This document shows, in pieces, positions 22,401-53,226 of a DNA stretch of 64,000 nucleotides. Each line of letters begins with the position of its first letter. The first letter of the stretch is position 1. Below the pieces are notes generated by a model. That model was given only the letters and a program-made list of their open reading frames with translations. It did not search any database and had not been told where the DNA came from. This DNA comes from an uncultured Pseudomonadales bacterium. GTDB lineage: Bacteria > Patescibacteriota > Microgenomatia > UBA1400 > PJMF01. Where the stretch lies: assembly GCA_964607285.1 (NCBI GenBank), contig CAZSJW010000003.1, positions 6,094-70,093 of the forward strand. Reading direction: 5' to 3'. Both the position numbers and the translations under genes were made by a program.

Positions 22401-25400
22401 AGTGGTGAGTGCCGAATAGATTTATATAAATACTTTGTTCCATCAGTAAAGACTGAGGAATTCTCGCCACCACGCTCAAGTACAAGTTTAGCTGTTGCGA
22501 TTTTAAATAACTCATATCCAGTTTCAACCAAACCTTCGGCCTCACAAACTAAACGAGCTGTTTTAATTACTGATCTTGTGTCAAACCTACCTCGCCTTCC
22601 TTGTACATCAGCAAGAAAGCTACTGGTTACTTCATCAAGTATTTGATCAGAGACAGCGGTTTTATCTTGTTTTCTCAAGCTTAGCAACAGTTTTGTTTTT
22701 AAAACTGAATCAAAGTACTGTTGCCAGAACAATGCATTTTTTAAGTTACTCTGCAAATCGTCTTTATGCCGTGATCCATACTGCAGTTTCTGATCAGCAG
22801 TAAAGGTATCAATTTTCCTCTGTGCAGTATGAACCAGTCTTTCCACTTCCTTAGTAGCCCTTCGATACACTATAAGTGCATCTGGAATATTTCCAACCGC
22901 AACAAGCGCATCTAAAGCCTCCATCAGTACAATGGTTTTATACTCAGCATCACTATAATTATTGTTTGGCTCCAGCTCTAACGATTCAACGTTTCGCATT
23001 ATAGTTTCCTGCAATCTGACATCACCTGGATTTGCTAAAGGAATTGCAGTTGCTAATGCACCTATTTTGAACGGTAACTGTTCAAAATGTATGCGTCTGT
23101 AACTTGACCAAGGATATTTTTCATCATACAAGTGAGTTGTCGAGCTCTTAAAATAATGAGGGTTAAAAAATGGCTTCCTAGACTCAGCTAAATCAAGTAA
23201 TGTCTGAATACCTCTTTCATATGCTTTTTGATTATTTTTTTGTCGTAAATCAAACACTGCTTGTTTTTTTTGTTGTTCAAGTACAAGATGCAGGTCAGCA
23301 AAGCTTGTGGGCCTGCTATAGTCATACTCTTTCATCTGTCGTACTCTATCAGAATATCTTTCACTGTTCTCGATACACTCATATTTAGCAAGACTTTTAG
23401 CTGTCTGTAACGCACTTGATTTCCATTCCGCTACAAAATGTTCAACATCTGCATCTGAGATAGTATCAGGCATTTTCTCAGCTGCTAGCTCAAACATGCT
23501 GCACTTTTCAGGAATATTTTCCATGGTGTATAAAAGTTGCAGTCCCTTGCTAAAGTTTGGTGGATCATTAAAAAGATTAGTTAAAACAGAAACATATGGC
23601 TCACTAAAAACTTTGAAATACTCATACTCTTTGTTTTCACTAGAAACGTAGAGTAAAAAGGGAAATGGTCCTAGATTTTTGTCATAAGCAACTTTAAAGC
23701 CTTCTGCTAACACTGCAAGTTGCAATTCAGTAGCAATTTTTGCATACTCTGTTGCTTGTGAAAAAATACTTGATGCAAGTTCCTCATACCGTTTACTGAG
23801 CTCCTGATCTAAAGCGTGCACTGCACGAGAGAGTTTGCTGATTGATACTGCATCCAGAGGAGACACCCTAGTTAACTCAAGATATACTTCCAATTCCTCA
23901 CTTTGAGAGACTTTATTAATGACGTAATCAGCATTAGGTGCTAAAACGTACTCCTCATTTGCCCGTAACTGCACAACCAAAGCATACAGCTCACTTGTAC
24001 TTACTCTCTTTCCCTCCTGTTTACGATTGTCAAACAATTCTTCTACTTTTTTGCGACCTTCTATAGTAAACCTACCATTGTAAGCTTCAACATACCTACG
24101 AAGTAGTACTTTCTTAATTTTTGATTCATTTTGACTCAATTTTTTTTCAATCTCGGGAAGTAACTGCTTTGCCAAGTCAACCAATCCCACTTGAATCAAT
24201 TTCTCTGAAAGTTGCTGCAAATCACCAATACTTGCGCCTCTCACACCATGTCGTTCAATATAGTACTTTATTACGGTAATCCCTTGCTCCGAATATCCCG
24301 CTCGCATCATCGATGCACCCACATCAAACAACTTTTTTGAATAATCTTCATATCTGCTTTTAGTTTTTGCAACTTCTAACACATCCGCAACTAACTCCTT
24401 ATATAGTTTAGCCGCTGCTGCACCAAAGCTTTTCTCGGCAAACAACAATCGTTCAGAAAAATATGACCCACTGCTTGCATCTCTTTTTCTACCAGCATGC
24501 AGTCGTTTTGCAAACTCGCCTGTTAGTCTAATTTTCAATCGTGTTGCTTCTTTATCAGCAACAATTCTTTCTCGAAGCTTGTTTGTCGGCTCGGGCCTAT
24601 TCTCAAATGTTAGTGCCAACAACGACTCCTTGCTAATTTCGACTGTCTTCTCAGCAGTCCCACCTGCTGTATCTTCTTCTTCAATTTCATCTTCATCCAC
24701 ATCCCGCGGTGAGTTCTTCCTTTGCAAGTTCTGGAGAATCTGTGAAAGATACTCCTGTGCTAAACCTACAATCTTGCCTTGAAAAACAGGATCAGATACT
24801 GATTTGAGCAACTTACCAGTATCTAGTTTTATCTGAATTCCACCATTGTCAGTGACGCTCAACCCAATTTCAGGAATACTAATGAGTTCTTTGTTGCGCA
24901 ACTGCCTGACTATATTGCCTGACTGCTGTTTGTAGTACTGATCGTGAAAGGGCGAGATGACTGGCATCTGCTCAACCAATCCCTCAAATCCCCCACTTTC
25001 ATATGCAGCTGCAACTTGTGGCAGGTACTCATCAGAGCCTAAACTTATTTCAACTCCAAACTTAGCCAACTCTTTGCTCAGTTGCAATTCTGCTAAATAT
25101 GAATGCGCCTCATCTCTCATCAATTGTGCATGTAAATTTTTCTCAAGTTGGCTATCTGTGGCATCTAAATCCATCAACAGTTTGCTGTCTTGCACTGGAA
25201 GAGCGTGTTTTATTTCATGAATTAGCATTCTTGGAGAAACCCTGGTGCCACGCTCGATAGATATTTGTGTTGCATACGTCGAAGACCGATTTGCAAATTG
25301 CGCAGCTGACCGCATTGCAGCACTTGCATCACCAATCACTATGGGAACGTGTGCCAGTACATCCTCTATCATTGGCGCACAGTAATCTGGAGATACAACA

Positions 25401-25582
25401 GACAGCAATTCAAGCACTCTTGTGATATCTTCGGGTGTGAGAATGGGGTTGGTCAGTTGCTCTGCAAGAGCTCTCGCTAGTTTTTCAGCCTCTTCTTTTG
25501 ATAACTCAGTACCATTCTGTATCTCTGAAATTGTAGAAAGTACATCTATTTCATGCATAGTGAACAAGAACATTCCATGCAT
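19406..25582 (-). CDS. Giant multi-domain protein (2058 aa) with C-terminal ABC1/UbiB-type atypical kinase domain
   Basis: C-terminal ~450 aa: ALKVGTIGEVYAATLLDGTAVVVKV (ATP-binding Lys) and HDDLHPGNVRV...LLDFG (catalytic and DFG-like) typical of ABC1/AarF/UbiB kinases; N-terminal ~1600 aa largely alpha-helical with an HEIKH (HExxH) motif near residue 120. Confidence 0.6.
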   Translation of the reverse strand: MHGMFLFTMHEIDVLSTISEIQNGTELSKEEAEKLARALAEQLTNPILTPEDITRVLELLSVVSPDYCAPMIEDVLAHVPIVIGDASAAMRSAAQFANRSSTYATQISIERGTRVSPRMLIHEIKHALPVQDSKLLMDLDATDSQLEKNLHAQLMRDEAHSYLAELQLSKELAKFGVEISLGSDEYLPQVAAAYESGGFEGLVEQMPVISPFHDQYYKQQSGNIVRQLRNKELISIPEIGLSVTDNGGIQIKLDTGKLLKSVSDPVFQGKIVGLAQEYLSQILQNLQRKNSPRDVDEDEIEEEDTAGGTAEKTVEISKESLLALTFENRPEPTNKLRERIVADKEATRLKIRLTGEFAKRLHAGRKRDASSGSYFSERLLFAEKSFGAAAAKLYKELVADVLEVAKTKSRYEDYSKKLFDVGASMMRAGYSEQGITVIKYYIERHGVRGASIGDLQQLSEKLIQVGLVDLAKQLLPEIEKKLSQNESKIKKVLLRRYVEAYNGRFTIEGRKKVEELFDNRKQEGKRVSTSELYALVVQLRANEEYVLAPNADYVINKVSQSEELEVYLELTRVSPLDAVSISKLSRAVHALDQELSKRYEELASSIFSQATEYAKIATELQLAVLAEGFKVAYDKNLGPFPFLLYVSSENKEYEYFKVFSEPYVSVLTNLFNDPPNFSKGLQLLYTMENIPEKCSMFELAAEKMPDTISDADVEHFVAEWKSSALQTAKSLAKYECIENSERYSDRVRQMKEYDYSRPTSFADLHLVLEQQKKQAVFDLRQKNNQKAYERGIQTLLDLAESRKPFFNPHYFKSSTTHLYDEKYPWSSYRRIHFEQLPFKIGALATAIPLANPGDVRLQETIMRNVESLELEPNNNYSDAEYKTIVLMEALDALVAVGNIPDALIVYRRATKEVERLVHTAQRKIDTFTADQKLQYGSRHKDDLQSNLKNALFWQQYFDSVLKTKLLLSLRKQDKTAVSDQILDEVTSSFLADVQGRRGRFDTRSVIKTARLVCEAEGLVETGYELFKIATAKLVLERGGENSSVFTDGTKYLYKSIRHSPLSDAQKDQLLSELVIAMTPPENKDWTYFSGSFVTLLTMANEIASDRRFAKTELEILKIFASIQDELITSSNFTLMSNMFDYLTKYYPEFLYDSNFDCLQSCVDDSQHFSFIAALLPATAETVLQGPIVVDGFFDLNRIRAGYFDMQETLDAVLSELTRVLSNPELVTTRLVHLLQVLTEISSQEMVAFRNTKTSEFIFTKQDLLNLQSIGALHGALEKLLYSSGAQFSAEAEQLLRVFLQAGSAEEAAMKYPLYLDLLGNTAVPTLVQQVVFENLAKTDKVTSYVDNYFSTSVRASGDSEQRQFYEWMKKLLILCSDTLPNDHMVAFLLKNPHRAGEFFQKFEFAVTHDVVPWQIENVHRYPDSGLHIYYKGSKEQFFELRDFFITKGTFWLPSLTNDLDLLITYDTNFDSNGEHRSYEKFLENIEEMYVKSNWNMDVPSYSFYSYTVEDLEEELQKYLPNFVFTEAQFQKVEDIFWRNKQEGRFKKESKVPWNKGGITYSQLTTEVTGEINLGTTQYHSLIRFLKGPDTSDAILLLRIYGDIDQPTEKKQEISDTLHQARLEYISRVDAIQEGNIETPAVFEKMPEVVQFMMKQYFMLLPYGERRAILDEFEVNQTLPPEKAVQRFFEVTGMEKVGQFLSTRRDLIPENYRVELEQFQEDVEASSFEEVRKTVELQLGKPLTEVFGSFETTALKVGTIGEVYAATLLDGTAVVVKVITPSKRQVVRRTLDRIGKVCWLMQRNKDRFGGTYDPIAMFTEFKTSMEEELDFRKERENAEAMRKDLPQGFTIPSYHPGLSGESVLVQSFASGVNVREIVDSTLKKDVVVKLGSLLIRQIISHGVFHDDLHPGNVRVNPLTGEIELLDFGRTGYAAERERNSLVPLILAITTKSTKHIVDILVDTSASQARFDRIGLEHKLEQLLPEFSGRTSLMISSILFECGNHGLEVNPTYMRILKAVMTFEGTALMLQPDFSFDTFFLQYGMSVFQGSMGALFNTPS

Positions 25583-27458: not shown

Positions 27459-28739
27459 TTATTTTCGCATCAGTACAATTCCAAAGGGAGTGTTTCTTCC
27501 TGGCCCAGCTACATATCTTCCTGCTGAATAGAGTGCTGTTGAACCACCACTATCTAAATTAATTCCATGCTGTAATCCTATTTTTTTGAGTACCCAAGCA
27601 ACCTCAGCGACAGTCGCACTACGCACGACACCAATGTAGACTGTACTCCCTTGTGCCCCAATGAAACTTCGAGACCCTCTACTTCCCTTTTTTGGATCTC
27701 CATCACCACCAAATCGAATATCACCATTTTGTAATAACAAGGGTTGAGCAGCGATGACAGCGTCTACACCAGTATCTCTCCCCCACTCTTGACTAGCACC
27801 TACAAAGCGTGCTGAGTTACCACTGAAAATCACTGCAGGAACTGCGCTATAAACGTTGTTAGCCGAGTTAAAGTATGTCTTCTGCTTATTCATGAGCAAG
27901 GTATCAAATGAGTTGGTTTTGCCCTCACAACTAGGATACTCTGCAGGACAAAAATAAGGACCATTTATACCTGCAAAACCGCCAGCTTTTGCAACAAAGT
28001 TTGCCAATGAATCAACTGGACAACCATTACCGCAATCACTATTACTAGCAGTTTCCACTACCACACGAGTACTGTTTAAGTCAGCAGCTATGATATCTAC
28101 TACAAAAGACCCAACATCAGTTTCTACCGTTTGCCTGCGATAGCCACTGTTTGGAGCAGCATTATTAACTGGTGCAGTCAAACCTGGATTTGAGCCCGCT
28201 GCGGTAAGCTCTGCCAGTCGGGTATCAACAGCTTTTTTTAGGTTTGAAGATGCTCCGATTGCCAGCTGGTACTCACGCTTAGAAAGTGCGGTTAAAATTG
28301 CGCTATAGCTGGACTCAAAAGTTTGCACTTTGCTGTCGTCTTCGGAAAGCTTTAAGAGTGCTTCATATACTATGACACTCTGTTTGTATGCATCTTCCAA
28401 ACTCTTTATTTCCGCTTGTAAATCTTCGTTGCGCTTAAACTGATCCTCAGCTCGCAACGCAGCGAGTTCACCACTTATTGAAGACAACTGGGTAGTTAAC
28501 TCTGCTCGTTCATTAGTAAATACCTGTTCTGTCTGCTGATGAGTAATAGCATACTTATCCCTCAATGCTCTATAGCCACTGTATGCTGCCACCCAATATG
28601 CAATCGCACCAATTAGTGTTGGCACAAGTATCCCCAATACAACTATAGAGAAGACAGTACGTAATTGGAGATACAGAGTTTGAATACTGCGCATGGTGCT
28701 ATACAAATCAGGCTCTGATACCACAGAGCCTGAATACAA
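27459..28739 (-). CDS. Membrane-anchored phosphodiester-glycosidase-family (DUF2233-like) protein
   Basis: N-terminal TM, coiled-coil, C-terminal INLDSGGSTAL motif characteristic of DUF2233. Confidence 0.45.
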   Translation of the reverse strand: MYSGSVVSEPDLYSTMRSIQTLYLQLRTVFSIVVLGILVPTLIGAIAYWVAAYSGYRALRDKYAITHQQTEQVFTNERAELTTQLSSISGELAALRAEDQFKRNEDLQAEIKSLEDAYKQSVIVYEALLKLSEDDSKVQTFESSYSAILTALSKREYQLAIGASSNLKKAVDTRLAELTAAGSNPGLTAPVNNAAPNSGYRRQTVETDVGSFVVDIIAADLNSTRVVVETASNSDCGNGCPVDSLANFVAKAGGFAGINGPYFCPAEYPSCEGKTNSFDTLLMNKQKTYFNSANNVYSAVPAVIFSGNSARFVGASQEWGRDTGVDAVIAAQPLLLQNGDIRFGGDGDPKKGSRGSRSFIGAQGSTVYIGVVRSATVAEVAWVLKKIGLQHGINLDSGGSTALYSAGRYVAGPGRNTPFGIVLMRK

Positions 28740-29151: not shown

Positions 29152-29616
29152 TTACCGAGTCACTGTGATGACTACACCCAATTCTGCATCAGGCGCACTG
29201 ACTGTGATACGGTTATCTGAAGCACTGCGAACTACTTCATATCCTGTGGCATATGTGCCAGAACATGTTGTAATTGGGGCTGTATTCAATGTAGGGTCAG
29301 TAGGCATAGCAGCCAAGTACTCTGTGACTAAGTCTGAACAGATGTTAGCACCAGTATCACTGATTTCCAAAGATGAGGTGGTAATACCACCAGGGAGTGC
29401 ACCTTTATTATCAGCTGCATACTGATGAATAGCATTCAAAATAGCATTAACATCACTACTACGAGCAGTGTTGTTTGCCTGTGAGAACTGCTTTGCGGGA
29501 TTAATGGCAATCAAAACAATAGCCAGCAAGACAGCTAAAATACCAATAACAACTAACAACTCAATCAAGGTAAAACCTTTCTTGAAGTGTAATGATTTGG
29601 GCAGGAGATATTGCAT
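29152..29616 (-). CDS. Type IV pilin (prepilin-type N-terminal cleavage/methylation domain), likely major pilin
   Basis: Class III signal KKGFTLIELLVVIGILAVLLAIVLIAI; about 150 aa; strong terminator downstream. Confidence 0.8.
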   Translation of the reverse strand: MQYLLPKSLHFKKGFTLIELLVVIGILAVLLAIVLIAINPAKQFSQANNTARSSDVNAILNAIHQYAADNKGALPGGITTSSLEISDTGANICSDLVTEYLAAMPTDPTLNTAPITTCSGTYATGYEVVRSASDNRITVSAPDAELGVVITVTR

Positions 29617-29684
29617 ATGGAGTCTCTGTTACCTTGTGTTAGATAATATACTCCTTTTACTATAGAACCCATTCGATTACTGTG

Positions 29685-30809
29685 TCAAGTGCTTGTAACA
29701 ATTCGGACAGATAGTACTCCATCTGTGCCGTTCAGTTCTTGAATAATTGGCTCTGTTGTTACTACAGTTTTTACTGCATCAATAACAATTGCTCGAATTT
29801 GTTCAGAAGTATTCTCTGCAAACAAGATACTCGCTCGACTCACTGTGCCGCCCGAATTGTTTCCAGTGGTGATCGTTTTAAATCCTACCGCTTCTAAAGC
29901 CGTACGAACTTGATCAGCTTGACCTGGAATACCTGAGCCATTCAATACTTGCACAGATGCGGCTGCCAATTCTGCAGGGGTGGGTTCAAGTGCTGATGCT
30001 GCTGCACTTGCTGTGGGTGTTGGCTCTAAAATAGGTAAAGGTACAGAAATCGGAGTTGGTGCTGGAACCACTGGCAGCGGATCAGCAGTGACTGACCATC
30101 GGTAAACAAGTAGCAACGCAATGAGCAAAACACCGAACACTATGCTTAAAATAATTAATTGTTTTTTGTCTTGTGGTAAACCTGATTGGATTTTTTGGTC
30201 TGATTTGATTTTCTTTTCTCTTTCTTCCTCAGAAACAAAACTCAGTAACTTTAATTGATCAAAGGTCTTACCTAACTTAGTTACAATCTCAGAAGGCTTG
30301 GCTTGCTTTAGTAACTCGGCATTGATTGCGAACTGAGGTAAAGCCAACGTGACCCTGTAGTGATGTGAGTCAAAAACTTGCACCAATGGTCTATACAAAT
30401 TTTTACTTATTGCAACTGCAGCAGCTCCTTGTTGGAGTTGAAACACTTTGCTCAGTTTATGCTCAAACGGAACCATTCCCAGAAATCCCAAAAGTTGTGG
30501 ATCTTCGTTGGTTGGTAGTTTCGGGAAATCTTGCCTAAAGTAGCACTCTTCAGAAAAAATAATATATGTGTTCGATTCTGCTATTTTCTCATCATTTCTC
30601 CAACCAATTAGTTGTGTTTCAATGAATCGAGTATCCGCAAACTCCATATCTTGCATGACACCTTCAGGGTAGTCTAGAACCAATGGTTCTGCAGCAATTG
30701 CAGAAAAAAGTGTCATCCGCTTCAGTTCGACAAACACAACTAATGGGACTGTTGTGCCACCATGCGCTAAGTTTGATAAAGTAAGTATCATTCGAACTGC
30801 TCCTGCCAA
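29685..30809 (-). CDS. Bitopic membrane protein with C-terminal LytR_C-like domain (pilus-locus associated)
   Basis: Cytoplasmic N-domain, single TM (LIILSIVFGVLLIALLLV), Pro-rich linker, C-terminal VQVLNGSGIPGQADQVRTALEAVGF (LytR_C-like). Confidence 0.4.
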   Translation of the reverse strand: MAGAVRMILTLSNLAHGGTTVPLVVFVELKRMTLFSAIAAEPLVLDYPEGVMQDMEFADTRFIETQLIGWRNDEKIAESNTYIIFSEECYFRQDFPKLPTNEDPQLLGFLGMVPFEHKLSKVFQLQQGAAAVAISKNLYRPLVQVFDSHHYRVTLALPQFAINAELLKQAKPSEIVTKLGKTFDQLKLLSFVSEEEREKKIKSDQKIQSGLPQDKKQLIILSIVFGVLLIALLLVYRWSVTADPLPVVPAPTPISVPLPILEPTPTASAAASALEPTPAELAAASVQVLNGSGIPGQADQVRTALEAVGFKTITTGNNSGGTVSRASILFAENTSEQIRAIVIDAVKTVVTTEPIIQELNGTDGVLSVRIVTST

Positions 30810-31189
30810 GATGTAACACTCAATACGTAATTAGTATACCCTGCTGTAACTACAATTGTCCTTTGAAAGCCCCCTACAACGCCGACTGAAGTAATTGTAA
30901 CAGGATCTACACCAGTAACAGTGATTGTGGCTGCTCCTCCGCCAACTGGCAAAGTTTCCCCTGTGTATCCAGGATCACGAAGAAAACGATACAAGGCATT
31001 TTCAATTCCACTCTCCGCGATATACAAAGCCTCATGACTGCGATCGAAACTACTAACCTGTTGAGTGCTTGTGATGGCAGCGGCAACAGTCGCTGTGAGC
31101 ACAACCATAGCAACAGCAGAAAAAATTAACAGCGCAGCGAGTGCTTGACCACTTTGCTGAGATCCTCGCTTTTTCACAGTTTTCAACAT
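30788..31189 (-). CDS. PilX-like/minor pilin-like protein
   Basis: N-terminal hydrophobic helix (GQALAALLIFSAVAMVVLTATVA) resembling PilX_N; within pilin operon. Confidence 0.4.
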   Translation of the reverse strand: MLKTVKKRGSQQSGQALAALLIFSAVAMVVLTATVAAAITSTQQVSSFDRSHEALYIAESGIENALYRFLRDPGYTGETLPVGGGAATITVTGVDPVTITSVGVVGGFQRTIVVTAGYTNYVLSVTSWQEQFE

Positions 31190-31689
31190 TAGCGAACTCC
31201 TATGGTAGTGGCAAATGATCTGTCCTCACTCCCTCTGGGTGGTTGTGCCCCAGCTGACGCTGTAAAACTGACTCGAAGTGAGTCGAAATCAGATCCATCA
31301 CTAACCCTCGTAAACTGCAAATCAGATATTGATAAATCTGCACGATGCATGCTCTGAGTACTCCCTCCAGCAGTAAGTTCAATGGCCGTTCCACTCAGTT
31401 GATAGATGAATGGTTGCCCATCGATCAGTAGGCTGAGCGTATCTCCGCTGGTTCCAGGAGTAGGAATAGTGATCAAATCAGCTCGGTAAACATCATACTC
31501 AATTCGTTGCAACAAATACTGCCCTTCTTGCGAAACGATTGAAACCGCCTGCCCTTCCATTTGTGTTTCTAAGCTAGTCAGAAACAATGTAGTTAAACCT
31601 GTCATAAAAACTGTCAACAAACCCATATACAACAACAGCTCGACTAAAGTAAATCCCAGCTGGTAAGTTTTAACAATTGTTTGTTTCAT
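31189..31689 (-). CDS. Prepilin-type pseudopilin/minor pilin
   Basis: N-terminal GFTLVELLLYMGLLTVF methylation motif. Confidence 0.7.
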   Translation of the reverse strand: MKQTIVKTYQLGFTLVELLLYMGLLTVFMTGLTTLFLTSLETQMEGQAVSIVSQEGQYLLQRIEYDVYRADLITIPTPGTSGDTLSLLIDGQPFIYQLSGTAIELTAGGSTQSMHRADLSISDLQFTRVSDGSDFDSLRVSFTASAGAQPPRGSEDRSFATTIGVR

Positions 31690-33632
31690 GGTGAATAATT
31701 AACGGTAACTGAGTATAGTTCAGGAGTTTGCAATGAATCCTCAGAAGAAAAATAAGCTCTATACCGAAAACATCGCCCTGGATTTTCATACCCCGAACCG
31801 TCATTGTTAAATGGAATTGGACCATCGCTTTCAAAAAAAGTACTTGCTGTTCCATCTGGGCCAACAAATGAAAAACTAGCACTTGTGCAACTTCCGCTGA
31901 CTGGGTCAGCAACTGCAACCTGGTATTGAACATCCGTTACGTCACCAGGCTCAATATGTTGAATAAAAAAACGATTAAAAGCAACAGAGTACCCAGGATC
32001 TATAGATGAGGATTCAAAAGTGCCAAACATTGCGTAAGAACCACCTCCTGGTCCGCCTTCAATTACTTTAAACTCTGCAGCAGTATCACCAGTCACAATA
32101 TATGAATATGCATCTCCGTCAGCTTCTTGCACAGCTGATACGCCGTAAATGCCAGTATTTACTTCAATTCCACCACAGCGAACAGGGTTAGACTCATTTG
32201 CTATGTTAACAACTTGATATTCCTCGCCATTTGTTCCAACTAATATCACTTTGTTTCCTGAAACAGCAGTAACACCAGTTGGATTCATTGATCCCGAATT
32301 ATACGAACCTAAAATCGGCAAACTACCTGATTTATTGGTTGTGTTAATAATAAAAAGTTCGGATAAAGAGTTTGACTGTGTTGTAGCTAAATATGCTCTT
32401 GTACCTGTATCATTGACGAACACTTCACGCCCATACTCGCCATTTACGTTCGCCGTTGCCACACTGTAAATATTGGTGCGATTACTAACATTTGCCACCC
32501 TGAGTTCAGCTGAACCCCAATCAACTGCCACGTATGCATAGTTGTTTACAACCTGTAATCTCCTGCCCGTTCCCCATAAAAACAGCGAGTCTAACATCGA
32601 TCTTGATCCAGTCTTGCTAGTTACGTCAAAGGTTACCAACCAAGCACCTGCAGTCATATATCCTGTATTACCCACAACATAAATTCCGTTTGCAGTCCCA
32701 TAAAACCAAGGAGCATCAAAGTATCCTACTTCCTGATTTGTGCTTAGATCTATAATCACAATGTTTTTTGTGCCATCATCGGTAGCTATATATGCATAGT
32801 TTGTGTCAATGAAAATATCATTGGTATCGTATCCAGTGATAGTAGAACTAACACTAACTGAAGGAGGATCAGCGTTAGTAACAGCAATTTCCGAAAAGAC
32901 ACCTGTGTTTGCAAAATCAGTCCCAGCAAACGCTTTGCCCTCAATTGCTCTAACTGCCCTTGCTGCAGCATTTTGAGGTAAGTCTAGTTGTGCCACAATA
33001 AACTCGTTTGGAACACACCAGTCACCATTTCCTGCACTAGCCAAAATAACTTCCCCTCCCGCTGTACTAGTGGAAACAGTATCTGTAAGTGTGCCAGCCT
33101 CAAACTCTGCTTGGCTACTTTGTGTAACTGTCACGTTATCGCCAAACCGAGACAAGTACATCTGATGGGTTACTATTTCAGATTTCGGAATTGACCACCC
33201 AACCTCAATCGTAATCAATTTGGTTGAAGGATCCAGTGAGCCACCACTACTAACAATTTGTTGTGTATCATCTCTATACACGTCACTAATTTGAATCTCT
33301 CTAGTCAAAGTACCAACTGTTTCTCCCCCAGCGACCAAACTCCAACTGCCTGATTGAACTACAGGATGGTAAGTACCATTTGCTGCCACTGCATCCCACG
33401 TTTCATCTCGTGCAGCTCGGACTGCTTCTGTTGCTTCACGCACTAGTTGTGCTGCTTCTAATCGCTGCTCCTGTTGTGCTTTTCCCTCTCGGGTAATAAT
33501 AAAACCTGAAAGTAGAGCTGGAATTATTAGCGCAGCTACTCCAATTGCCACAAGAAGTTCAATCAATAACTGGCCCGTCTGATAACGTATACACCGAGGG
33601 ACGCTAGTAGCTTTATTCAAATATTTACTCAT
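31686..33632 (-). CDS. Large prepilin-like protein with LVIVD-type beta-propeller repeats (candidate pilus tip adhesin)
   Basis: N-terminal TGQLLIELLVAIGVAALII pilin-like helix; C-terminal repeats NNYAYVAVDWGSAELRVANVSN, YAYIATDDGTKNIVIIDLSTNQEV, KVILVGTNGEEYQVVNIAN resembling LVIVD repeats. Confidence 0.55.
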   Translation of the reverse strand: MSKYLNKATSVPRCIRYQTGQLLIELLVAIGVAALIIPALLSGFIITREGKAQQEQRLEAAQLVREATEAVRAARDETWDAVAANGTYHPVVQSGSWSLVAGGETVGTLTREIQISDVYRDDTQQIVSSGGSLDPSTKLITIEVGWSIPKSEIVTHQMYLSRFGDNVTVTQSSQAEFEAGTLTDTVSTSTAGGEVILASAGNGDWCVPNEFIVAQLDLPQNAAARAVRAIEGKAFAGTDFANTGVFSEIAVTNADPPSVSVSSTITGYDTNDIFIDTNYAYIATDDGTKNIVIIDLSTNQEVGYFDAPWFYGTANGIYVVGNTGYMTAGAWLVTFDVTSKTGSRSMLDSLFLWGTGRRLQVVNNYAYVAVDWGSAELRVANVSNRTNIYSVATANVNGEYGREVFVNDTGTRAYLATTQSNSLSELFIINTTNKSGSLPILGSYNSGSMNPTGVTAVSGNKVILVGTNGEEYQVVNIANESNPVRCGGIEVNTGIYGVSAVQEADGDAYSYIVTGDTAAEFKVIEGGPGGGSYAMFGTFESSSIDPGYSVAFNRFFIQHIEPGDVTDVQYQVAVADPVSGSCTSASFSFVGPDGTASTFFESDGPIPFNNDGSGYENPGRCFRYRAYFSSEDSLQTPELYSVTVNYSP

Positions 33633-34137
33633 CGAGCAGTACCCCATATTGATTCACGGTAAACCCAGCACTCTCACCAGACTCTACGTTTGAAATAGTA
33701 ATTGTGTCTTGACCTGACATAAACCCAACAACTTCCCCACTGCCGTGCTGAAATACCAAGATATTGCTTGGAAGTTCAGTCGAGATACTCACCGCTTCTT
33801 CCATAATCGTTTCCACATTACCCTGAGCCCCTGGGACATACGAGGATCCCTCAAAAAAGGTATACCGATCTGCAGCAAAAAAAACCCCGAATGCAGAAGG
33901 TCCCGCAACTATACCTACATCCCCTTGCATAGCGCGTGCCTGCAGCAATCTCAGTTCTGAGCGAAGCGTCTCTGCTGTGCTTCGAACAGCTACCCGAGGA
34001 ATCAATCTAGACAAGCTGACAGAGCTAATCCCATACAACACAGCAACAATTCCCATCACTAGGATCAATTCAATTAACGTAAATCCAGATTGGACGACTC
34101 TCCTACTGTGAACAGGGATAAAAAAACTGGCGGGCAT
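33625..34137 (-). CDS. Prepilin-type pseudopilin/minor pilin
   Basis: SGFTLIELILVMGIVAVLYGI motif; start at MPASFF to avoid overlap with upstream histidine kinase gene. Confidence 0.7.
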   Translation of the reverse strand: MPASFFIPVHSRRVVQSGFTLIELILVMGIVAVLYGISSVSLSRLIPRVAVRSTAETLRSELRLLQARAMQGDVGIVAGPSAFGVFFAADRYTFFEGSSYVPGAQGNVETIMEEAVSISTELPSNILVFQHGSGEVVGFMSGQDTITISNVESGESAGFTVNQYGVLLDE

Positions 34138-34189
34138 GCCTCCAGTATATATGGTGTGTGTGCAGGTTGCAGCAGAGAATAGTATCAAT

Positions 34190-36487
34190 TTATACCCAAA
34201 AGCTAGATCGCGTCCTGATGATACCAACGTCCTCTCTTTTCTTGAACTCATCTTCTAACTTCTTAAAATCTTCTTGCGTATATTTTTTCAATGAAAAACA
34301 AAAGCTTGAACCCTTTCCTTCACCAGGAGATGTTGCCCATATTTCACCCTTATGCAACTCAACAACTGCCCGACTAATAAATAGTCCCAAACCTGTCCCC
34401 TGCGATGCATTCTGGTTTGTTTTGTAAGAACCCTTGATTAGGCCAAATTTTTGAAACAATTTACTGATAGTATCTGGAGTCATGCCAACACCTGTATCCG
34501 TAACACTAGTTATCAGCATGTCCTCTTCTTGTCTGAATGATATTGTTATCTTACCTTTTTTGGGCGTAAACTTTAAAGAATTTCCCAGTAAATTCATCAC
34601 CACTTCGCTCAATTTATCACTATCAGCGATGACTGGGGGCACTGCTCCCAATGACTTGCCTGTCCTGTCTGTACAGTGATCCGCTACCTCCACAGTAATA
34701 TCTAATTCATCTGTTCTAGACTTGACCTCTGCTACGATTTCAGTGACTAACGCTTGTAGATCTACTTTACCAACTGTCAAGGCAATGCGGTGTGACTCAA
34801 TTCGCGAAATATTGAGCATGTCATTCACTAATTTGATGAGACGATCCGTTGATAAATATGATCGTTCCAAATAGTATCGTTGCTTCTTAGAAAGCTGACC
34901 GCCCTTACCACTCAGTGCCATCCATATATAAGATTTTATGGCAGTCATTGGAGTTCTTAGCTCATGTGAAGCTATGGACACAAAATCATCTTTCAGTCTG
35001 TCAAGTTCCTTTAGACTCTTATTTGCCCGACGTAGTTTTGAGGTTGCCCGTAACACTTCATCCTCCAAAACAACGTTAAATTGTTTTATCTCTTCAAATG
35101 AGAGCGCATTGCGAAGCGCAATTGCAATTTGAGGTGCAATTAGTTGTAGTGTTTTGATGTCTTCAGAGGTATACACAGTACCAGTTTGCTTTTCTTGCAA
35201 GAGCATGCATCCCAAATAATCATTATTAACAATCAGGGGCAAGATCACAGCAATCTGTCTCTCTCTCATAATTGACTTGATTACGGACTCATCGATTTCA
35301 TCAAAGATGATGATTTGATCACGAGCTTTTCCCAAGGCATTCTTGACTGCTTCATATACTTGAAAATCATGTTTAAATTGCTGTAGTTGCGTATCAGATG
35401 TGGGTTGCAATGCCAAAGCATCTGAACCGTACAACCTAACTTTTTTATTATCGTTCCCAATCACAATTGCCATTGCAGAAATTTTCATCTCACCAGATAA
35501 TACTTTGATAAATCCATCTACTAACTTAGTGAGAGACAAAATCGATGTAGAAATTTTGCTCGTAAGTTTCAGCAAATCAGCTCGATCATAATCCCTGCGG
35601 TAAAAAATTGTTTCTGTTTTATGCTGTATCCAGCGTTTCAGTGGCTCAAAAGTCGAAACCACTCCAATTGTCACAGCTGCTGACGTCAAAATAAGGAGCA
35701 TTGATGGTTCTTGCCCTGAAAGCAAACTCTGTAAGTAGAAGACTGAAACGCTATAGACAGCAATAAAAATTCCCATTACTAAGATGTATCCTAATGACCT
35801 AACAATGACCAAGCTTAAATCCAAGAATCGGTGTTTTACGATTGCATAAGCAATCGTGCCTGCAAAAATAAGAGTAAAAATAGGGCCAAACATTACAAAG
35901 GAAGAAATCTGCAAAAGCGCAACAAACACAAAGTTGGTAACAGTCAACAAAGTGAATGAGGAAATGATTCCAGCAAGTAAATACTTGAGCTGAGTCTTCT
36001 CCAAACCGTGTGCCCTTCTAAACTTTTTGATCAAGATCCCAAATCCAGCAATCAGTGTTCCAAAAAACTGTATTGCAAAAACAGGCAATGCTGGTCCTGG
36101 CTGTGGCGTAATGACCCCAGCGACTACTGAAACAGAAGTGAACATAAATGGTGACATTGCCAATACAGAGGTAATGAATCCCATATACAGTATTAAGTTT
36201 TCCCACTTGCCTGAGATTGTAGAGTGGGTTCGAGGAAATGATGCCACCAATAAAAGAATTGCTGGACCTAAAAATGAAGTTACTACCATTACAACTCTAA
36301 TCCAAAATAAAGTTGTTGCCTCATCAGGAGCGTGCAAAGAAAAGTAATTAGTAAGTGTCCATAGACCAATCACTACAGTGAGAAACAAAAAATGCCGATG
36401 TGTATCTCCTTTTGTGTTTTTTAGATACACAAAAAAACCTAACAAAAAGTTAAGAACAGTAACTACAATTGCGACAAGAAGTTCCAC
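34190..36487 (-). CDS. Sensor histidine kinase (multi-TM N-terminal sensor, GAF-like, HisKA, HATPase_c)
   Basis: H-box SHELRTPMTAIKSY, G-box GTGLGLFISRAVVELHKGEIWA; roughly 7 TM helices in N-terminal 300 aa. Confidence 0.8.
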   Translation of the reverse strand: MELLVAIVVTVLNFLLGFFVYLKNTKGDTHRHFLFLTVVIGLWTLTNYFSLHAPDEATTLFWIRVVMVVTSFLGPAILLLVASFPRTHSTISGKWENLILYMGFITSVLAMSPFMFTSVSVVAGVITPQPGPALPVFAIQFFGTLIAGFGILIKKFRRAHGLEKTQLKYLLAGIISSFTLLTVTNFVFVALLQISSFVMFGPIFTLIFAGTIAYAIVKHRFLDLSLVIVRSLGYILVMGIFIAVYSVSVFYLQSLLSGQEPSMLLILTSAAVTIGVVSTFEPLKRWIQHKTETIFYRRDYDRADLLKLTSKISTSILSLTKLVDGFIKVLSGEMKISAMAIVIGNDNKKVRLYGSDALALQPTSDTQLQQFKHDFQVYEAVKNALGKARDQIIIFDEIDESVIKSIMRERQIAVILPLIVNNDYLGCMLLQEKQTGTVYTSEDIKTLQLIAPQIAIALRNALSFEEIKQFNVVLEDEVLRATSKLRRANKSLKELDRLKDDFVSIASHELRTPMTAIKSYIWMALSGKGGQLSKKQRYYLERSYLSTDRLIKLVNDMLNISRIESHRIALTVGKVDLQALVTEIVAEVKSRTDELDITVEVADHCTDRTGKSLGAVPPVIADSDKLSEVVMNLLGNSLKFTPKKGKITISFRQEEDMLITSVTDTGVGMTPDTISKLFQKFGLIKGSYKTNQNASQGTGLGLFISRAVVELHKGEIWATSPGEGKGSSFCFSLKKYTQEDFKKLEDEFKKREDVGIIRTRSSFWV

Positions 36488-36530
36488 AAAGTAAGTGTAG
36501 CACGGTCATTGAATCTGCAAGAATAGGAAG

Positions 36531-37997
36531 TTACTCTGTTCGGTACTGATACTCATACTTCAGTCCAAAGACATCCTTAACCGCTTCTCGAAGTACAGCC
36601 AAGAGACTAGTTTTTCCATCAGCATACTGCTGCCAAAAAATTGGATAGTTTTCTACAATTTCAGGCAAGTAAGCGTTATCTTCTGCTTCAGCTGTTGCTC
36701 CTATCATTGCATCTAAGTCCACAACAACTCTGTCTCTCACTGATTGACCATTCAATATCTTACTCACAACTCTGCTTTGAACAGCACCACTAGCTGCAGC
36801 ATTAATTCCACTTTGTGATAGGTAGTTTTGCAAACCTTGTGACCCTAACAACAAATTCACCATCTGTCTTGGCGGAAAATATTTCGTGCCAACAATTTCA
36901 ACTACCAGTTTTGTAAATGCCATTGCAGCATCCAGTCCCTGCTTAGTTTTTAACTCCGCCAGTTTTTGAATCAGTACTGACTTGGTTAGATGTTTATGCC
37001 CAAAAAAGCCTAATTTGGCAATTGTTCCGTTCCCCTGCATCCAGTCCTGAAAATCCTCAAAACTTGCTGTTTGAGGATTTGGCAGTAAGCTGGTTGGATA
37101 TTGATCAGTTACGATAGTTGCCTCGTGCGCCACGTTATTATTCATACAAATTGGCACACCCAAAGCATACCCAATACAACGCAACACTACTTTTGTGTGC
37201 AAATCATCTATGGCATCAACTACAACTACTCGTTCCTTTTGGATAGAGAGTTTCTGAATGAGTTCAAACAGCTCTTTGTGGGGCAAAATTCTAGGGTACA
37301 GGTACACACCCGCCATAGGGTTAGACTCAACAATATCTCTACCTGTCTGCAGTACTTTAGACTTTCCCACATCCACAGTGCCAGAAGTTTGAAGGCGCAA
37401 CACATTGGATTGATCTACTACGTCTGGGTCAGTAAGGTGTACTTCCACACCCAGCTTGCCTAACAACTTAGCTGAGACTTCACCCGAACTTGCTCCCAAA
37501 ACTATCACTGCTGCACTTTCCAGCTGAGCGATTTCCTGTGCTGAAACTACAGGGTTGAGTCTAGAAAAGTACAATGCTTTAAAATAAGGTGCCCTGGGTA
37601 GTAATAAGAAACTACCCGTAATTTGATTTTGGTATACCAAAATATTTTCAGGGTCTGAAATGAATGTAGCAATGAACTCATCTTCAGTTTTCATTCCCAT
37701 TTGCTGAACACTTAAAATGTTATTTTTCCACAGTTCATGTAGTTCATTCCAAAACATTTGAAGGTAAGGCAACATTTCTTTAGCTACTTCTTGACTAAAA
37801 AGTAGTGCATAAAATTGTTGGAACTCACTACTTGTGTTAGGAAACTGAGTTAGAATGTCTGTTTCGCGCACCACAGACTTTGCACAATTCTCCTGTAGCC
37901 AAAGCTGTTCTCGAGCTGCTTGAGAAGTGTGCCACACAAGTTGTGGTTCAATACTTGGAGCAATGTTTGCTTGTTCAAGAAACGCAGTGTGCGTCAT
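36531..37997 (-). CDS. ThiF/MoeB (E1-like) adenylyltransferase-superfamily protein with N- and C-terminal extensions
   Basis: Central region VIVLGASSGEVSAKLLGKLGVEVHLTDPDVVDQSNVLRLQ...VVVVDAIDDLHTKVVLR parallels MoeB/ThiF (Rossmann loop, D.D.V..SNL.RQ, DxxDN..R); about 165-aa N- and 150-aa C-terminal regions of unknown function. Confidence 0.55.
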   Translation of the reverse strand: MTHTAFLEQANIAPSIEPQLVWHTSQAAREQLWLQENCAKSVVRETDILTQFPNTSSEFQQFYALLFSQEVAKEMLPYLQMFWNELHELWKNNILSVQQMGMKTEDEFIATFISDPENILVYQNQITGSFLLLPRAPYFKALYFSRLNPVVSAQEIAQLESAAVIVLGASSGEVSAKLLGKLGVEVHLTDPDVVDQSNVLRLQTSGTVDVGKSKVLQTGRDIVESNPMAGVYLYPRILPHKELFELIQKLSIQKERVVVVDAIDDLHTKVVLRCIGYALGVPICMNNNVAHEATIVTDQYPTSLLPNPQTASFEDFQDWMQGNGTIAKLGFFGHKHLTKSVLIQKLAELKTKQGLDAAMAFTKLVVEIVGTKYFPPRQMVNLLLGSQGLQNYLSQSGINAAASGAVQSRVVSKILNGQSVRDRVVVDLDAMIGATAEAEDNAYLPEIVENYPIFWQQYADGKTSLLAVLREAVKDVFGLKYEYQYRTE

Positions 37998-38001
37998 TTC
38001 C

Positions 38002-39114
38002 TCACCAATCTATTGGCAAATTGTGTATATCAGCTAAGAGCTGTTCCCTATTATACATCGAAGAGTATGGTTGTGGCTCAGCATGATCAAATAAATAGGT
38101 AAAGAGTTTCTCGTCTTCTTCAAATACTTTTGTCCATGCTTTTCTCCGTTTTGGCACAGCCAAATATTCTAAGTGCTCTTCAACAGAAGAAAACTCTTTG
38201 CCATTCAATTGTGCCAATGAATGTATGGTTTGCAGATGAGACTTTGTGAGGATATTCTCACGATATGCTTGTAACGCAACTTCTAAAAAGTTTTCCCCCC
38301 ACCAGTACCCTGGCCAATATTTAAACAGTTCAGCTATTTGCGACCGCAGTAGCGGTTCATGTAAAGCCATTTGTACCTGATAGCTAGGTGGTAACGCTAA
38401 ACTAGTTTTAGTTTCTGGAAATGAAAATGTATGAGCAACACCTGCTTTGTCCGTAAAAACAAACGATTGATCACGTAGTCTTCTAGCAAGCTGTAACAAA
38501 AATACCGAATCCTTCTGATCAGTCTGCAGTAAAACCGAAAAGGTAGCAGCAAGTGCTACGGCCCTGCTGTTACGAAGTTTTGCCTCATAGATCTCTTCTG
38601 GAACATCTACGCACTCTGATATCGTAGAAGCCCTACTTAGCACAGATACTTGTGATAATGGTATTCTTGCGTCAACGACATGCGCCAGAGGTATTGTGCC
38701 TTCAGGTGTTACAACTACCCAATGCAGTAAATCAATCGGAAGATTGTTGTACCCTAGCTGCAAAGCTGGTCGAGCAGTCATATGAAAATATGTAGTTATT
38801 GTAGGCGTTTTAACTGTAGTCAAAAAAAGTATTGTGTCAGATAACTTGTCTTCTGGGGTTTCCAGCAATACTCTGTTCTTATCTTCACGATCTCCCCAGA
38901 TAGCATACGCTGCTCTGATTTTCTGAATTTTCTGCCACATTTCTGCAGATACTTGTGATGCAGAAACAGCTCCAGCATCTACCGAGAACTGTTGTCCATC
39001 GTACTCGAACTCAGTTCTCCTACTCACTAGACCCTTTGTTTCAACTGAAACTGGATGCAAAAAATCATTGATTGGTTCAACAGAATGTCTGATTGTCTCT
39101 GCTTGGGTCAACAT
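38002..39114 (-). CDS. Hypothetical protein (370 aa), co-transcribed partner of E1-like gene
   Basis: 4-nt gap to downstream E1-like gene; no recognisable motifs. Confidence 0.4.
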   Translation of the reverse strand: MLTQAETIRHSVEPINDFLHPVSVETKGLVSRRTEFEYDGQQFSVDAGAVSASQVSAEMWQKIQKIRAAYAIWGDREDKNRVLLETPEDKLSDTILFLTTVKTPTITTYFHMTARPALQLGYNNLPIDLLHWVVVTPEGTIPLAHVVDARIPLSQVSVLSRASTISECVDVPEEIYEAKLRNSRAVALAATFSVLLQTDQKDSVFLLQLARRLRDQSFVFTDKAGVAHTFSFPETKTSLALPPSYQVQMALHEPLLRSQIAELFKYWPGYWWGENFLEVALQAYRENILTKSHLQTIHSLAQLNGKEFSSVEEHLEYLAVPKRRKAWTKVFEEDEKLFTYLFDHAEPQPYSSMYNREQLLADIHNLPIDW

Positions 39115-39210
39115 TGTAGAATATATATGGGGTACTGGTTAGGTATCTTTTGTTGCGTTTAGCCTCACTTTACTATACAGTAAACGCATGTTACAACCAA
39201 TGAGTATACA

Positions 39211-39582
39211 ATGAAAAAGAAGATATTGCTGATCGATGATGATCTTTTTATTCGTGACCTATATCATGAGGTACTCGAACAAGCAGGTTTTGAAGTTGAG
39301 ACTGCTGCAGACGGCAAAGCTGGTCTAGAAAAAATCCTTTTAGGTGGATTTGATCTAATTTTACTAGATGTGATGATGCCACAACTCGATGGGATAGGAA
39401 TTCTCTCGGAACTTGCAGTGCAGAAACCAAAACAAAACAATGGACCAATTGTGTTGCTCACTAATCTGGCTCATGACCCAATCATCAAAGAGGCGCTGCA
39501 ACACGGTGCCAAAGAGTGTTTTATAAAGGCTGACCTTAATCCAGATGAATTTTTGACTAAAGTTAAAGGCTTACTACGGTAG
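39211..39582 (+). CDS. Single-domain response regulator (CheY-like receiver)
   Basis: KKILLIDDD...; phospho-acceptor Asp in LILLDVMMP context; conserved T and K positions; no output domain. Confidence 0.75.
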   Translation: MKKKILLIDDDLFIRDLYHEVLEQAGFEVETAADGKAGLEKILLGGFDLILLDVMMPQLDGIGILSELAVQKPKQNNGPIVLLTNLAHDPIIKEALQHGAKECFIKADLNPDEFLTKVKGLLR

Positions 39583-39584: not shown

Positions 39585-40637
39585 TTACCTTGCCCCCACG
39601 TTTCCAATCAACCCATAAATAGGTGCAATGATCGACATCATCATAGCACCCACCCCAACCCCTACACCAACCAACATAATAGGTTCTAACATCGCGGTTG
39701 CCGTCTTTAGGTCTTTAGTCACGTGATAATCTAAAAATTCTGATATCTCTAGCATTGACTTGTCCAAAGTTCCGCTTTTTTCACCAACTTCTATCAATTT
39801 AATCATCATTCCTGGAATGCCATTCTTCCTTGAACGCAGACCTTCTGCAAACGACTGACCCGCCAGTACAGTGTCTCGTGCATGAATAATTAGTTGACGC
39901 ACTTCACGTTTAGAGACCACATCTGCTGCTAACTCAAGAGCGGTAGCTATTGGCAAGCCCGAGCTAAGCAACAAATACATGCTGCGCGAAAAGCGCGTCA
40001 GATCTATTTGCTCAACAAGCTTGGAGATTACGGGTAATGCAAATAAAAACCGATACAAGATCTCTCGCTGACTTCTGAACATGTAAACAATAAAGGCTGT
40101 AAAAAGTCCCAACCCAATACTTAGCTCAAGAGTGTTGTTTACAATCATATCGGAAACAGCAATCATCAGACGTGTAGGCAGTGGTAGCTCAACCCGCAAC
40201 CTGGAAAAAACAGTTGAAATTTTAGGAATAACAAATACTAAGATACCCAAAAATACTGCTGCAAAAACCACCATTACAAAAACTGGATACATTAGTGACG
40301 ATTTTACCTTGTCTGAGAACTCCATTTCATCTTGGATATTTTTTTTGATGTCTTTGAGAGTGGTTTCTAAATTTCCCGCTTCTTCAGATGCCTTGATCAA
40401 ATTAACGGTGACTTTATTAAATACTTTGGGAAACTTTGCGAAGCTTGCATGCACATGATTGCCCGCTGCTAAATCACTGGCTAATGTTTCCAACACTTTT
40501 TTTTGATTACCCTTCGACTCTGACATGATTGAACGCACGGATTCCATAATTGGAATACCAGCGGCCAACATAGTGGAAAGATTGCTAATCAGAGTGATTT
40601 TGTCACTCCCCGAGAGTCTCAATGATGATAACCGCAT
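39585..40637 (-). CDS. pilC: Type IV pilus assembly platform protein PilC (GspF family)
   Basis: Two GspF-like repeats with 3 TM segments; adjacent to pilB. Confidence 0.7.
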   Translation of the reverse strand: MRLSSLRLSGSDKITLISNLSTMLAAGIPIMESVRSIMSESKGNQKKVLETLASDLAAGNHVHASFAKFPKVFNKVTVNLIKASEEAGNLETTLKDIKKNIQDEMEFSDKVKSSLMYPVFVMVVFAAVFLGILVFVIPKISTVFSRLRVELPLPTRLMIAVSDMIVNNTLELSIGLGLFTAFIVYMFRSQREILYRFLFALPVISKLVEQIDLTRFSRSMYLLLSSGLPIATALELAADVVSKREVRQLIIHARDTVLAGQSFAEGLRSRKNGIPGMMIKLIEVGEKSGTLDKSMLEISEFLDYHVTKDLKTATAMLEPIMLVGVGVGVGAMMMSIIAPIYGLIGNVGAR

Positions 40638-46716: not shown

Positions 46717-47322
46717 CTATACAACTCGCCTACCCTCCAATGCCCTGGACAACGTCACCCCATCGGCATACTCGATGTCGGCACCAATAGGTAGCCCATG
46801 GCCAATTCTGGTGATCTTTAACTCTGGATGAGCTTGCTCAGATTGGCGAACAAACTCAGCAATGTACAAAGCAGTTGCTTCACCCTCCATGGTTGGGTTG
46901 GTAGCAAGCACCAATTCTTGCACCCCTCCCAATCGTTTTACTAAATCATGTAAAAACAATTGATCGGGCCCAATATTATTTAGTGGAGCAATCACCCCAT
47001 GCAACACATGATATCGACCCAGAAATGAGCCTGAGCGTTCAAGTGCAATTACATCCAGGGGTTGCTCGACCACACAAAGCAGCTCGTCTGAGCGATTTTG
47101 GTCCGAACACACAGCACACGGATCACTTTCACTTACGTTATGGCATTGTGTACAAAGTACAGTGTCACGTTTCAATGCCAACAATCTCTTGGAAAAATCC
47201 TCTAACTGATGATCGGGATTGTGCAGTAAATAAAACACTAATCGCTGAGCAGATTTGGGACCTATTCCAGGCAACTTCTCAAATGATTCAACCAAATTGG
47301 AAACAGCTCGTGGCAACTTCAT
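46717..47322 (-). CDS. recR: Recombination protein RecR
   Basis: HhH motif, C4 zinc finger CTQCHNVSESDPCAVCSD, Toprim domain. Confidence 0.85.
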   Translation of the reverse strand: MKLPRAVSNLVESFEKLPGIGPKSAQRLVFYLLHNPDHQLEDFSKRLLALKRDTVLCTQCHNVSESDPCAVCSDQNRSDELLCVVEQPLDVIALERSGSFLGRYHVLHGVIAPLNNIGPDQLFLHDLVKRLGGVQELVLATNPTMEGEATALYIAEFVRQSEQAHPELKITRIGHGLPIGADIEYADGVTLSRALEGRRVV

Positions 47323-47326
47323 AATA

Positions 47327-47977: not shown

Positions 47978-48010
47978 ATATCTCCTATCAACGAAATTAA
48001 TTCTAATCTA

Positions 48011-49069: not shown

Positions 49070-49129
49070 ACCACGACATGTAGTGCATGCGCAACTAGCA
49101 AAATACCACGTATAGTACGCACAAAACGC

Positions 49130-53218: not shown

Positions 53219-53226
53219 AAAAACCT

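Follow-up and report, generated by a model that had tools for sequence, protein, structure and literature searches.

A conserved Microgenomates minor pilin with a predicted LVIVD beta-propeller head, a candidate tip subunit of a type IV pilus

Type IV pilins can be modular, with a bulky domain attached to the end of the pilin module. In Streptococcus sanguinis, PilB has a von Willebrand factor A head and PilC a concanavalin A (ConA)-like lectin head (Raynaud et al. 2021, PMC8179133), and both proteins replace subunits of the H-I-J-K set and bear adhesive heads (PMC8179133, PMC10191384). Dataset S1 of the same study lists the architecture IPR012902-IPR013211, in which a prepilin domain (IPR012902) precedes LVIVD repeats (IPR013211), and its text mentions a pilin of Falkowbacteria with 12 such repeats 'of unknown function' (PMC8179133). 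LVIVD repeats (PF08309) are tandem units of about 42 amino acids with a YAYVA...L.V.D.S pattern, first described in cell-surface proteins of Archaea and Bacteria (PMC2447325). In the Saccharibacteria, Nanosynbacter lyticus TM7x carries PilX2, a minor pilin with a C-terminal heptabladed propeller of the RCC1 type; efficient binding to the host requires PilX2, filament extrusion does not, and it has been proposed to be the tip adhesin (PMC11623550). Here, we describe a protein that combines a pilin module with an LVIVD propeller, which we call the propeller pilin. It is encoded at positions 31686..33647, on the minus strand, of a 64,000-nucleotide stretch of Patescibacteria DNA (contig CAZSJW010000003.1; hereafter the window). 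To our knowledge, the Microgenomates, the group concerned, have no cultured representative, and we know of nothing that has been established on how they attach to partners or surfaces.

The open reading frame (ORF) of the propeller pilin has 653 codons. The NCBI protein P0001 is an identical copy (100% identity, 648 amino acids) annotated from M6; the ATG of M6, at 33632, and the stop codon of the gene before it share nucleotides (ATGAGTAA). The predicted leader peptide (33576..33647, minus strand; residues 1-24, shortened to 19 residues by a start at M6) ends in Gly25. Its sequence is not conserved, its median length among homologues is 12 amino acids, and it is disordered in the structural model described below. 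The N-terminus reads RYQTG25|Q26LLIE30LLVAIGVAALIIPALL, i.e., glycine at position -1 and glutamate at position +5 of the putative cleavage site, followed by a hydrophobic helix; the hydrophobic stretch, of about 20 residues, reads QLLIELLVAIGVAALIIPALL. In an alignment of 40 sequences of the family, E30 is invariant (40/40) and G25 is at least 90% conserved. A scan of 120 homologues for the class III signal motif found it in 118, with position -1 occupied by glycine in 114 and by alanine in 3 of the 118, and position +1 by glutamine in 91. An earlier note on this DNA, made from the sequence and a list of ORFs, had called the product a 653-residue prepilin-like protein and had proposed to look for glycine or alanine at -1 and glutamate at +5 in homologues, and both points held. 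The search it suggested for the pilin N_methyl domain gave a divided answer, as the domain (PF07963) matches 10 of the 40 homologues but not the query alone. Judged by its sequence features, the protein appears to be a type IV pilin in every respect tested except the threshold of the hidden Markov model (HMM) for the query alone.

The AlphaFold2 model computed with the family alignment covers the full protein (mean predicted local distance difference test, pLDDT, 87.9; predicted template modelling score, pTM, 0.72) and divides it into a pilin module, a linker, a propeller and a C-terminal domain, all encoded on the minus strand. The pilin module is predicted to have the long helix and antiparallel beta-sheet of pilins. 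Its alpha-1 region (33384..33575; residues 25-88), in which the mature protein would start with QLLIE and carry Glu30 at +5, is modelled as a helix of 58 residues (25-82), and the globular beta-sheet (33144..33383; residues 89-168) has strands at 91-98, 101-106, 114-125, 137-151 and 157-166, with W102, R125 and D139-P140-S141 invariant in the alignment. A beta linker (33012..33143; residues 169-212; consensus TTEADFxxGT...GGEVxLG..GDWC) follows, in which Cys211 is invariant and a short beta segment is modelled at 172-202.

The next domain is the seven-bladed LVIVD beta-propeller (32049..33011; residues 213-533), for which 28 strands, i.e., seven blades of four, are predicted over residues 217-531. 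Cys491 within it is invariant, as is the acidic motif ExDGDAYSY of blade 7. The Pfam match of the query alone to LVIVD (PF08309) is marginal, 20.6 bits against a gathering cut-off of 20.2, and 38 of the 40 homologues are matched, with a best E value of 6e-18. All seven units, of about 44 amino acids each, can be aligned with one another on the pattern g..v.v.gnYAYva.d.g..el.v.dvs. The LVIVD-type repeats reported in the earlier note sit at residues 284-304, 368-389 and 466-484, and the propeller it expected from them is what AlphaFold2 and Foldseek both returned. The best matches in the PDB (Foldseek) are seven-bladed propellers, with target-normalised TM-scores of 0.66-0.79. The first of these is the WD40 domain of ATG16L1 (5nuv; target-normalised TM-score 0.79, root-mean-square deviation 3.3), and others include RACK1/Asc1, WDR33, DDB1, the uncharacterised Dtox_1751 (3u4y, 17% identity) and the lipoprotein BtuG1 of Bacteroides thetaiotaomicron (8blw). 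With an HMM score above the gathering cut-off and tandem units modelled as four-stranded blades, the domain has the predicted hallmarks of an LVIVD-repeat propeller, and the family HMM matches together with the predicted fold rule out repeats arising by chance. We know of no established biochemical function for the LVIVD repeat family, and membership therefore says little on the ligand.

The C-terminal beta-sandwich (31689..32048; residues 534-653) spans residues 541-652 in the full-length model and reaches a pLDDT of 94.8 when modelled alone; Cys587, Cys626 and the C-terminal NYSP are invariant. We considered it as a lectin, but its jelly-roll-like matches (GOLD domain, birnavirus VP2, Kex2 P-domain, CBM22) are non-significant (E of at least 0.025) and we therefore do not call it one. 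The alignment thus has four invariant cysteines (C211, C491, C587 and C626), for which the disulfide pairs C211-C491 and C587-C626 can only be guessed, and we considered an arrangement in which the linker at 169-212 and the C-terminal domain would form a single sandwich holding the inserted propeller. The mature protein would have a mass of 66.8 kDa and an isoelectric point (pI) of 4.2, with a net charge of -16 for the propeller (family median -17.5) and -10 for the C-terminal domain.

The propeller pilin is the second of four genes in a tightly packed minor-pilin set on the minus strand, where the start and stop codons of adjacent genes overlap, an arrangement of translational coupling. The first gene (33625..34251) encodes a GspH/ComGD-like pilin with the N-terminus G56|FTLIE, a Pfam N_methyl match and sub-threshold NCBIfam matches to GspH and ComGD; translation probably begins in fact at M39 (nucleotide 34137), past the stop codon of a histidine-kinase gene, and the median mature length of its family is 154 amino acids. 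The third gene (31189..31689; 166 amino acids; G|FTLVE, with Glu5 present) has a start codon that overlaps the propeller-pilin stop (ATGA). The fourth (30788..31189; 133 amino acids; G|QALAALL) has a weak match to PilX_N and a residue other than glutamate at +5, which in the homologues scanned is hydrophobic or threonine. The major pilin is encoded further downstream on the same strand (29152..29616; 154 amino acids; G|FTLIELLVVIGILAVLLAI), matches N_methyl and, below threshold, GspG and ComGC, and has an N-terminus that is nearly identical between loci. The pilus operon, the PilX-like protein and the major pilin had all been recognised in the earlier note; its three pseudopilins come down to two canonical ones, and the gene of 374 codons between the PilX-like and major pilins does not encode a pilin. 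Glutamine at +1 is common to the propeller pilin (33570-33575) and the PilX-like pilin, the other pilins having phenylalanine; such an N-terminal glutamine could cyclise to pyroglutamate in place of being N-methylated.

Across loci, the H-like, propeller, 166-residue and major pilins all carry Glu5, which the PilX-like one alone lacks. The rule for tip complexes is that the capping subunit has no Glu5 (PMC10191384), and the pattern is the signature of a tip complex with such a cap. By its sequence context, the propeller pilin would be one of the four co-encoded core minor pilins of a tip complex of the H-I-J-K type. The set resembles GspH-I-J-K, PilH-I-J-K and ComGD-E-F-G in having four consecutive minor-pilin genes, the first GspH/ComGD-like and the last without Glu5, with the propeller pilin in the second slot (I or E). 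It differs in that GspI, PilI and ComGE are the smallest members of their sets, whereas the propeller pilin is by far the largest of its own. The correspondence with the I/E slot is one of position, because the N-terminus scores far below threshold against the ComGE models (13.2 and 18.5 bits against cut-offs of 25 and 49). PDB sequence searches with a profile of the family, with the pilin module by itself and with the three pilins encoded next to it returned nothing informative, and for this reason the module is not assigned to a specific I, J or K class.

How does this protein compare with the systems described above? Like the modular pilins of S. sanguinis, it joins an N-terminal pilin module to a bulky C-terminal part that is not specific to pilus biology, and it is a minor pilin in the place of an H-I-J-K member. 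Unlike them, its head is an LVIVD propeller with an unmatched beta-sandwich, and it is a fixed, highly conserved component of the operon throughout a clade of Patescibacteria. It shares with PilX2 the C-terminal seven-bladed beta-propeller on a Patescibacteria minor pilin. The two differ, in a comparison made by description, in that PilX2 has RCC1-type blades and no PilD signal predicted by its authors (PMC11623550), whereas the protein described here has LVIVD blades, clear Gly(-1) and Glu(+5) residues and an extra C-terminal domain. PilY1/PilC of diderm type IVa pili is likewise a large protein with a seven-bladed propeller, which works with the minor-pilin tip complex in adhesion and priming. 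It is, however, a non-pilin that docks onto the minor pilins, whereas the propeller is here covalently fused to a pilin, and the gene order differs. The query has no Pfam match to PilY1/PilC (PF05567, IPR008707) at E <= 1, and PilY1 is not among the 50 best Foldseek matches in the PDB. A further feature of PilY1/PilC is a calcium-binding site in the propeller that controls pilus dynamics; the acidic motif ExDGDAYSY is what the propeller pilin has to compare with it. We rejected membership of the PilY1 family on two defining features, the family HMM and the status of a non-pilin docking protein, and the propeller pilin is therefore at most a functional analogue, which is as far as the PilY1-like role proposed in the earlier note can be kept. 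The LVIVD proteins first described at cell surfaces have the same tandem repeats but are not pilins. A literature search for LVIVD and pilin found nothing relevant beyond the architecture list of 2021, and no study of the architecture. The architecture is thus already known and would not surprise a specialist, while the protein itself is uncharacterised.

The family is large. More than 434 homologues with about 50% identity over the full length were found in the first search, and the named ones among them bear the labels Woese-, Pace-, Levy-, Ames- or Gottesmanbacteria. An exhaustive profile search gave 1,459 representatives at E <= 1e-30; the best 150 of them all have E <= 1.4e-120 and most are near full length. 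Relatives are encoded 219 times in a scan of 185,579 species genomes, and 80 loci were retained from them. The credibly labelled ones are metagenome-assembled genomes (MAGs) of the Microgenomates group or of otherwise unclassified Patescibacteria. Many third-party annotation (TPA) MAGs with the operon (among loci L004-L083) are titled 'uncultured Pseudomonadales' or 'uncultured Gammaproteobacteria', one 'Pseudomonadales' being isolate HK-STAS-PATE-15; on an operon of Patescibacteria type, these titles look like taxonomic mislabels.

Gene order is almost exceptionless in 83 loci: PilB, PilC, the H-like pilin, the propeller pilin, a further pilin, the PilX-like pilin, a LytR_C protein (in most) and the major pilin. 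The propeller pilin is in the operon at all 85 related loci examined, which had been retrieved by similarity to it, so that operons without a propeller pilin are outside the sample. Its identity to the window protein (best high-scoring segment pair, as for all identities across loci) is 42-55%, not far from that of PilB, which is 52-69% in all but one locus; the other minor pilins lie well below the propeller pilin, at roughly 25-50%. The mean pairwise identity is even along the protein (0.46 in the pilin module, 0.54 in the propeller and 0.47 in the C-terminal domain). Between the window and its two closest relatives, saturation at synonymous sites (pS 0.72-0.87) rules out a ratio of non-synonymous to synonymous divergence (dN/dS), and we therefore compared the non-synonymous divergence alone. 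Relative to the closest relative, L004, this is lowest in the operon for the propeller (0.071) and the C-terminal domain (0.078), against 0.098 for the major pilin and 0.263 for the pilin module of the same protein. The propeller-sandwich head appears, from these sequence comparisons, to be under strong purifying selection. This contradicts the idea, raised in the earlier note, of a variable adhesin specific to each host, and the conservation data rule out a hypervariable one.

A few homologues have elaborated the head. In P0128 (897 amino acids; L084 2118-4811), which occupies the same operon slot, the propeller loop between blades 4 and 5 has taken in a ConA-like lectin domain (Laminin_G_3, E 3.5e-29), which suggests an exposed ligand-binding surface. 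P0219 and P0260 (about 955 amino acids) have extra LVIVD repeats, consistent with a second propeller, and P0260 (L085 7001-9874) is also found in the same slot. P0268, of 1,998 amino acids, has the same N-terminal module followed by many LVIVD stretches.

From the signal motif, fold, operon and conservation established in silico, we infer how the protein may be cleaved, placed at the tip and used in binding. A prepilin peptidase would cut after Gly25, and the protein would then enter the pilus by its alpha-1 helix and small beta-sheet, as other pilins do. The pilin module would join the other three minor pilins in a priming and tip complex, which by number, order and Glu5 pattern would be a tip-priming set like GspH-I-J-K, PilH-I-J-K or ComGD-E-F-G. 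The PilX-like subunit without Glu5 would cap this complex, the propeller pilin and the 166-residue pilin would sit beneath the cap, and the connection to the major pilin would be made by the GspH-like one. The propeller-sandwich head, of about 50 kDa, is too bulky for the filament shaft and would therefore have to project from the tip as the exposed binding end. It would recognise a conserved, non-variable ligand on a partner cell or a substrate, for which a surface glycan is our best guess.

Taken as a whole, a modular type IV minor pilin whose tip-exposed head binds a conserved ligand is the reading we lean towards, with somewhat better than even confidence. It draws on the architecture, the place in the four-gene minor-pilin set and the precedents of S. 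sanguinis PilB/PilC and Saccharibacteria PilX2, and on these grounds the tip adhesin suggested in the earlier note stands as the most likely function, though as a matter of inference. Several observations weigh against it. The +1 residue is glutamine rather than phenylalanine or methionine, which is atypical; the query alone has no match to N_methyl (PF07963) or TIGR02532 at E <= 1; and neither a prepilin peptidase nor a retraction ATPase (PilT) is found among the ORFs of the window scanned against Pfam. The best PDB propellers are generic ones of WD40/DDB1 type, neither adhesins nor lectins, and the C-terminal domain has no significant Foldseek match in the PDB (best E 0.025, TM-scores of at most about 0.5). 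The head is also the most conserved part of the operon, which is odd for a host-specific adhesin and suits a structural role equally well. Such a role would make the protein mainly a priming or capping factor, an essential core of the assembly-initiation complex that unites in one polypeptide the PilY1 and minor pilin of diderms; its head would act not as an adhesin but as a plug or stop that, for example, prevents complete retraction through the envelope. We think this rather unlikely, yet it stays a serious rival because the head is so conserved. The protein's presence at every locus of the similarity-based sample, a conservation that comes near PilB and PilC and clearly exceeds the other minor pilins, and the low non-synonymous divergence of the propeller and C-terminal domain all fit it, as does the rule that the core minor pilins on which assembly depends are typically conserved (PMC10191384). 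What speaks against it is that the analogous PilX2 of Saccharibacteria is dispensable for filament extrusion and that one orthologue, P0128, has gained a lectin domain, a sign of ligand binding. The two roles are compatible. The head might serve the priming of assembly and, at the same time, the recognition of one universal ligand (for example, a conserved cell-wall glycan, or cation-bridged DNA), as a clade-wide essential core in which a PilY1-like propeller is fused to a core minor pilin, and not as an adhesin that sets host range; this version, too, we regard as rather improbable.

Another rival would make the head the DNA receptor of a competence (Com-like) pilus, catching extracellular DNA for uptake, which nucleotide-auxotrophic Patescibacteria need. 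The operon is indeed compact and comG-like: an ATPase, a platform protein, one major and four minor pilins make it up, and genes for PilM, PilN, PilO, PilQ and PilT are absent from it. Its pilins give sub-threshold matches to ComGC, ComGD, ComGE and ComGF, the window encodes DprA and RecR, and a universal ligand would account for the strong conservation. We nevertheless hold this to be quite unlikely: the strong negative charge of the head and the low pI of the mature protein argue against direct DNA binding, no DNA-binding fold was matched by the propeller and C-terminal domain in the PDB (Foldseek), and thin-pilus mutants of Saccharibacteria, including pilX2, retained wild-type competence. 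Equally doubtful is that the protein is not a pilus subunit at all, its pilin-like helix being a mere membrane anchor, or part of a short pseudopilus like that of type II secretion systems, and the propeller a surface or secretion protein that stays in the envelope. The atypical +1 glutamine, the sub-threshold N_methyl score and the lack of a prepilin peptidase gene among the scanned ORFs would agree with this, and LVIVD repeats were first described in cell-surface proteins (PMC2447325). But the invariant Glu5 and near-invariant Gly(-1) would be superfluous for a simple anchor, and the gene, translationally coupled to its neighbours, sits strictly within a minor-pilin set that has its own major pilin.

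The propeller pilin is the only large exposed module of a compact Microgenomates pilus operon, is conserved clade-wide and is confidently modelled, and so offers a handle on the surface biology of this group. It might serve as bait for a ligand or host, as an antigen for labelling cells in enrichment cultures, or as a clade marker gene. It is also the second independent case in Patescibacteria of a beta-propeller on a minor pilin, after the RCC1-type PilX2 of Saccharibacteria, which suggests convergence on a design that diderms reach with the separate protein PilY1. If the head does both prime assembly and bind a universal ligand, it would be the one conserved point at which these uncultured, ultra-small bacteria meet their partners.

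The PilB-type extension ATPase (40647-42338, minus strand; MshEN and T2SSE domains in orthologues) and the PilC-type platform protein (39585-40637, minus strand; T2SSF in orthologues) are encoded upstream, and in most genomes their orthologues directly adjoin the minor pilins. In the window, they are separated from these by an insert with genes on both strands (34190..39582), which encodes regulatory and other proteins: a response regulator (39211-39582, plus strand), a 7TM-GAF histidine kinase (34190-36487, minus strand), a protein of 370 amino acids without assigned function and a ThiF-like protein. The insert was detected, whole or in part, in about ten related loci (e.g., L003, L009 and L015), most loci having none of it, and could be an optional regulatory module for the pilus.

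Between the PilX-like and major pilins lies the gene of 374 codons (29685..30809, minus strand), which encodes a membrane protein with an extracellular LytR_C domain (Pfam, E 3.3e-9) and keeps the same slot in most related loci. Across loci, this protein has about 230-435 amino acids, with a cytoplasmic N-terminal part, one transmembrane helix and a proline-rich linker before the LytR_C domain, and it may take the place of the PilM, PilN and PilO components, which are missing. Directly upstream of the major pilin gene is the best promoter-like site of the region (TTGACA-18-TATAGT, 29659..29688, minus strand; 11/12 matches), a consensus match of a class of sites that is not enriched there. The gene that closely follows the major pilin (27459-28739, minus strand) encodes a protein anchored in the membrane, with a coiled coil and a NAGPA phosphodiester-glycosidase domain (E 1.4e-13); it is conserved beside the operon in L004 (77% identity). 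Further along, an ORF of 2,058 codons (19406-25582, minus strand) has a sole Pfam match, to an ABC1 atypical-kinase domain at the C-terminal end (E 2e-41), which leaves the first ~1,700 residues unannotated. On the other side of the operon, the stretch 46717-58123 encodes RecR (46717-47322) and DprA (57014-58123), together with a run of genes of nucleotide metabolism, for thymidylate kinase, dUTPase, dihydrofolate reductase (DHFR), dCMP deaminase and thymidylate synthase; all of these bear on DNA uptake and salvage in a reduced genome.

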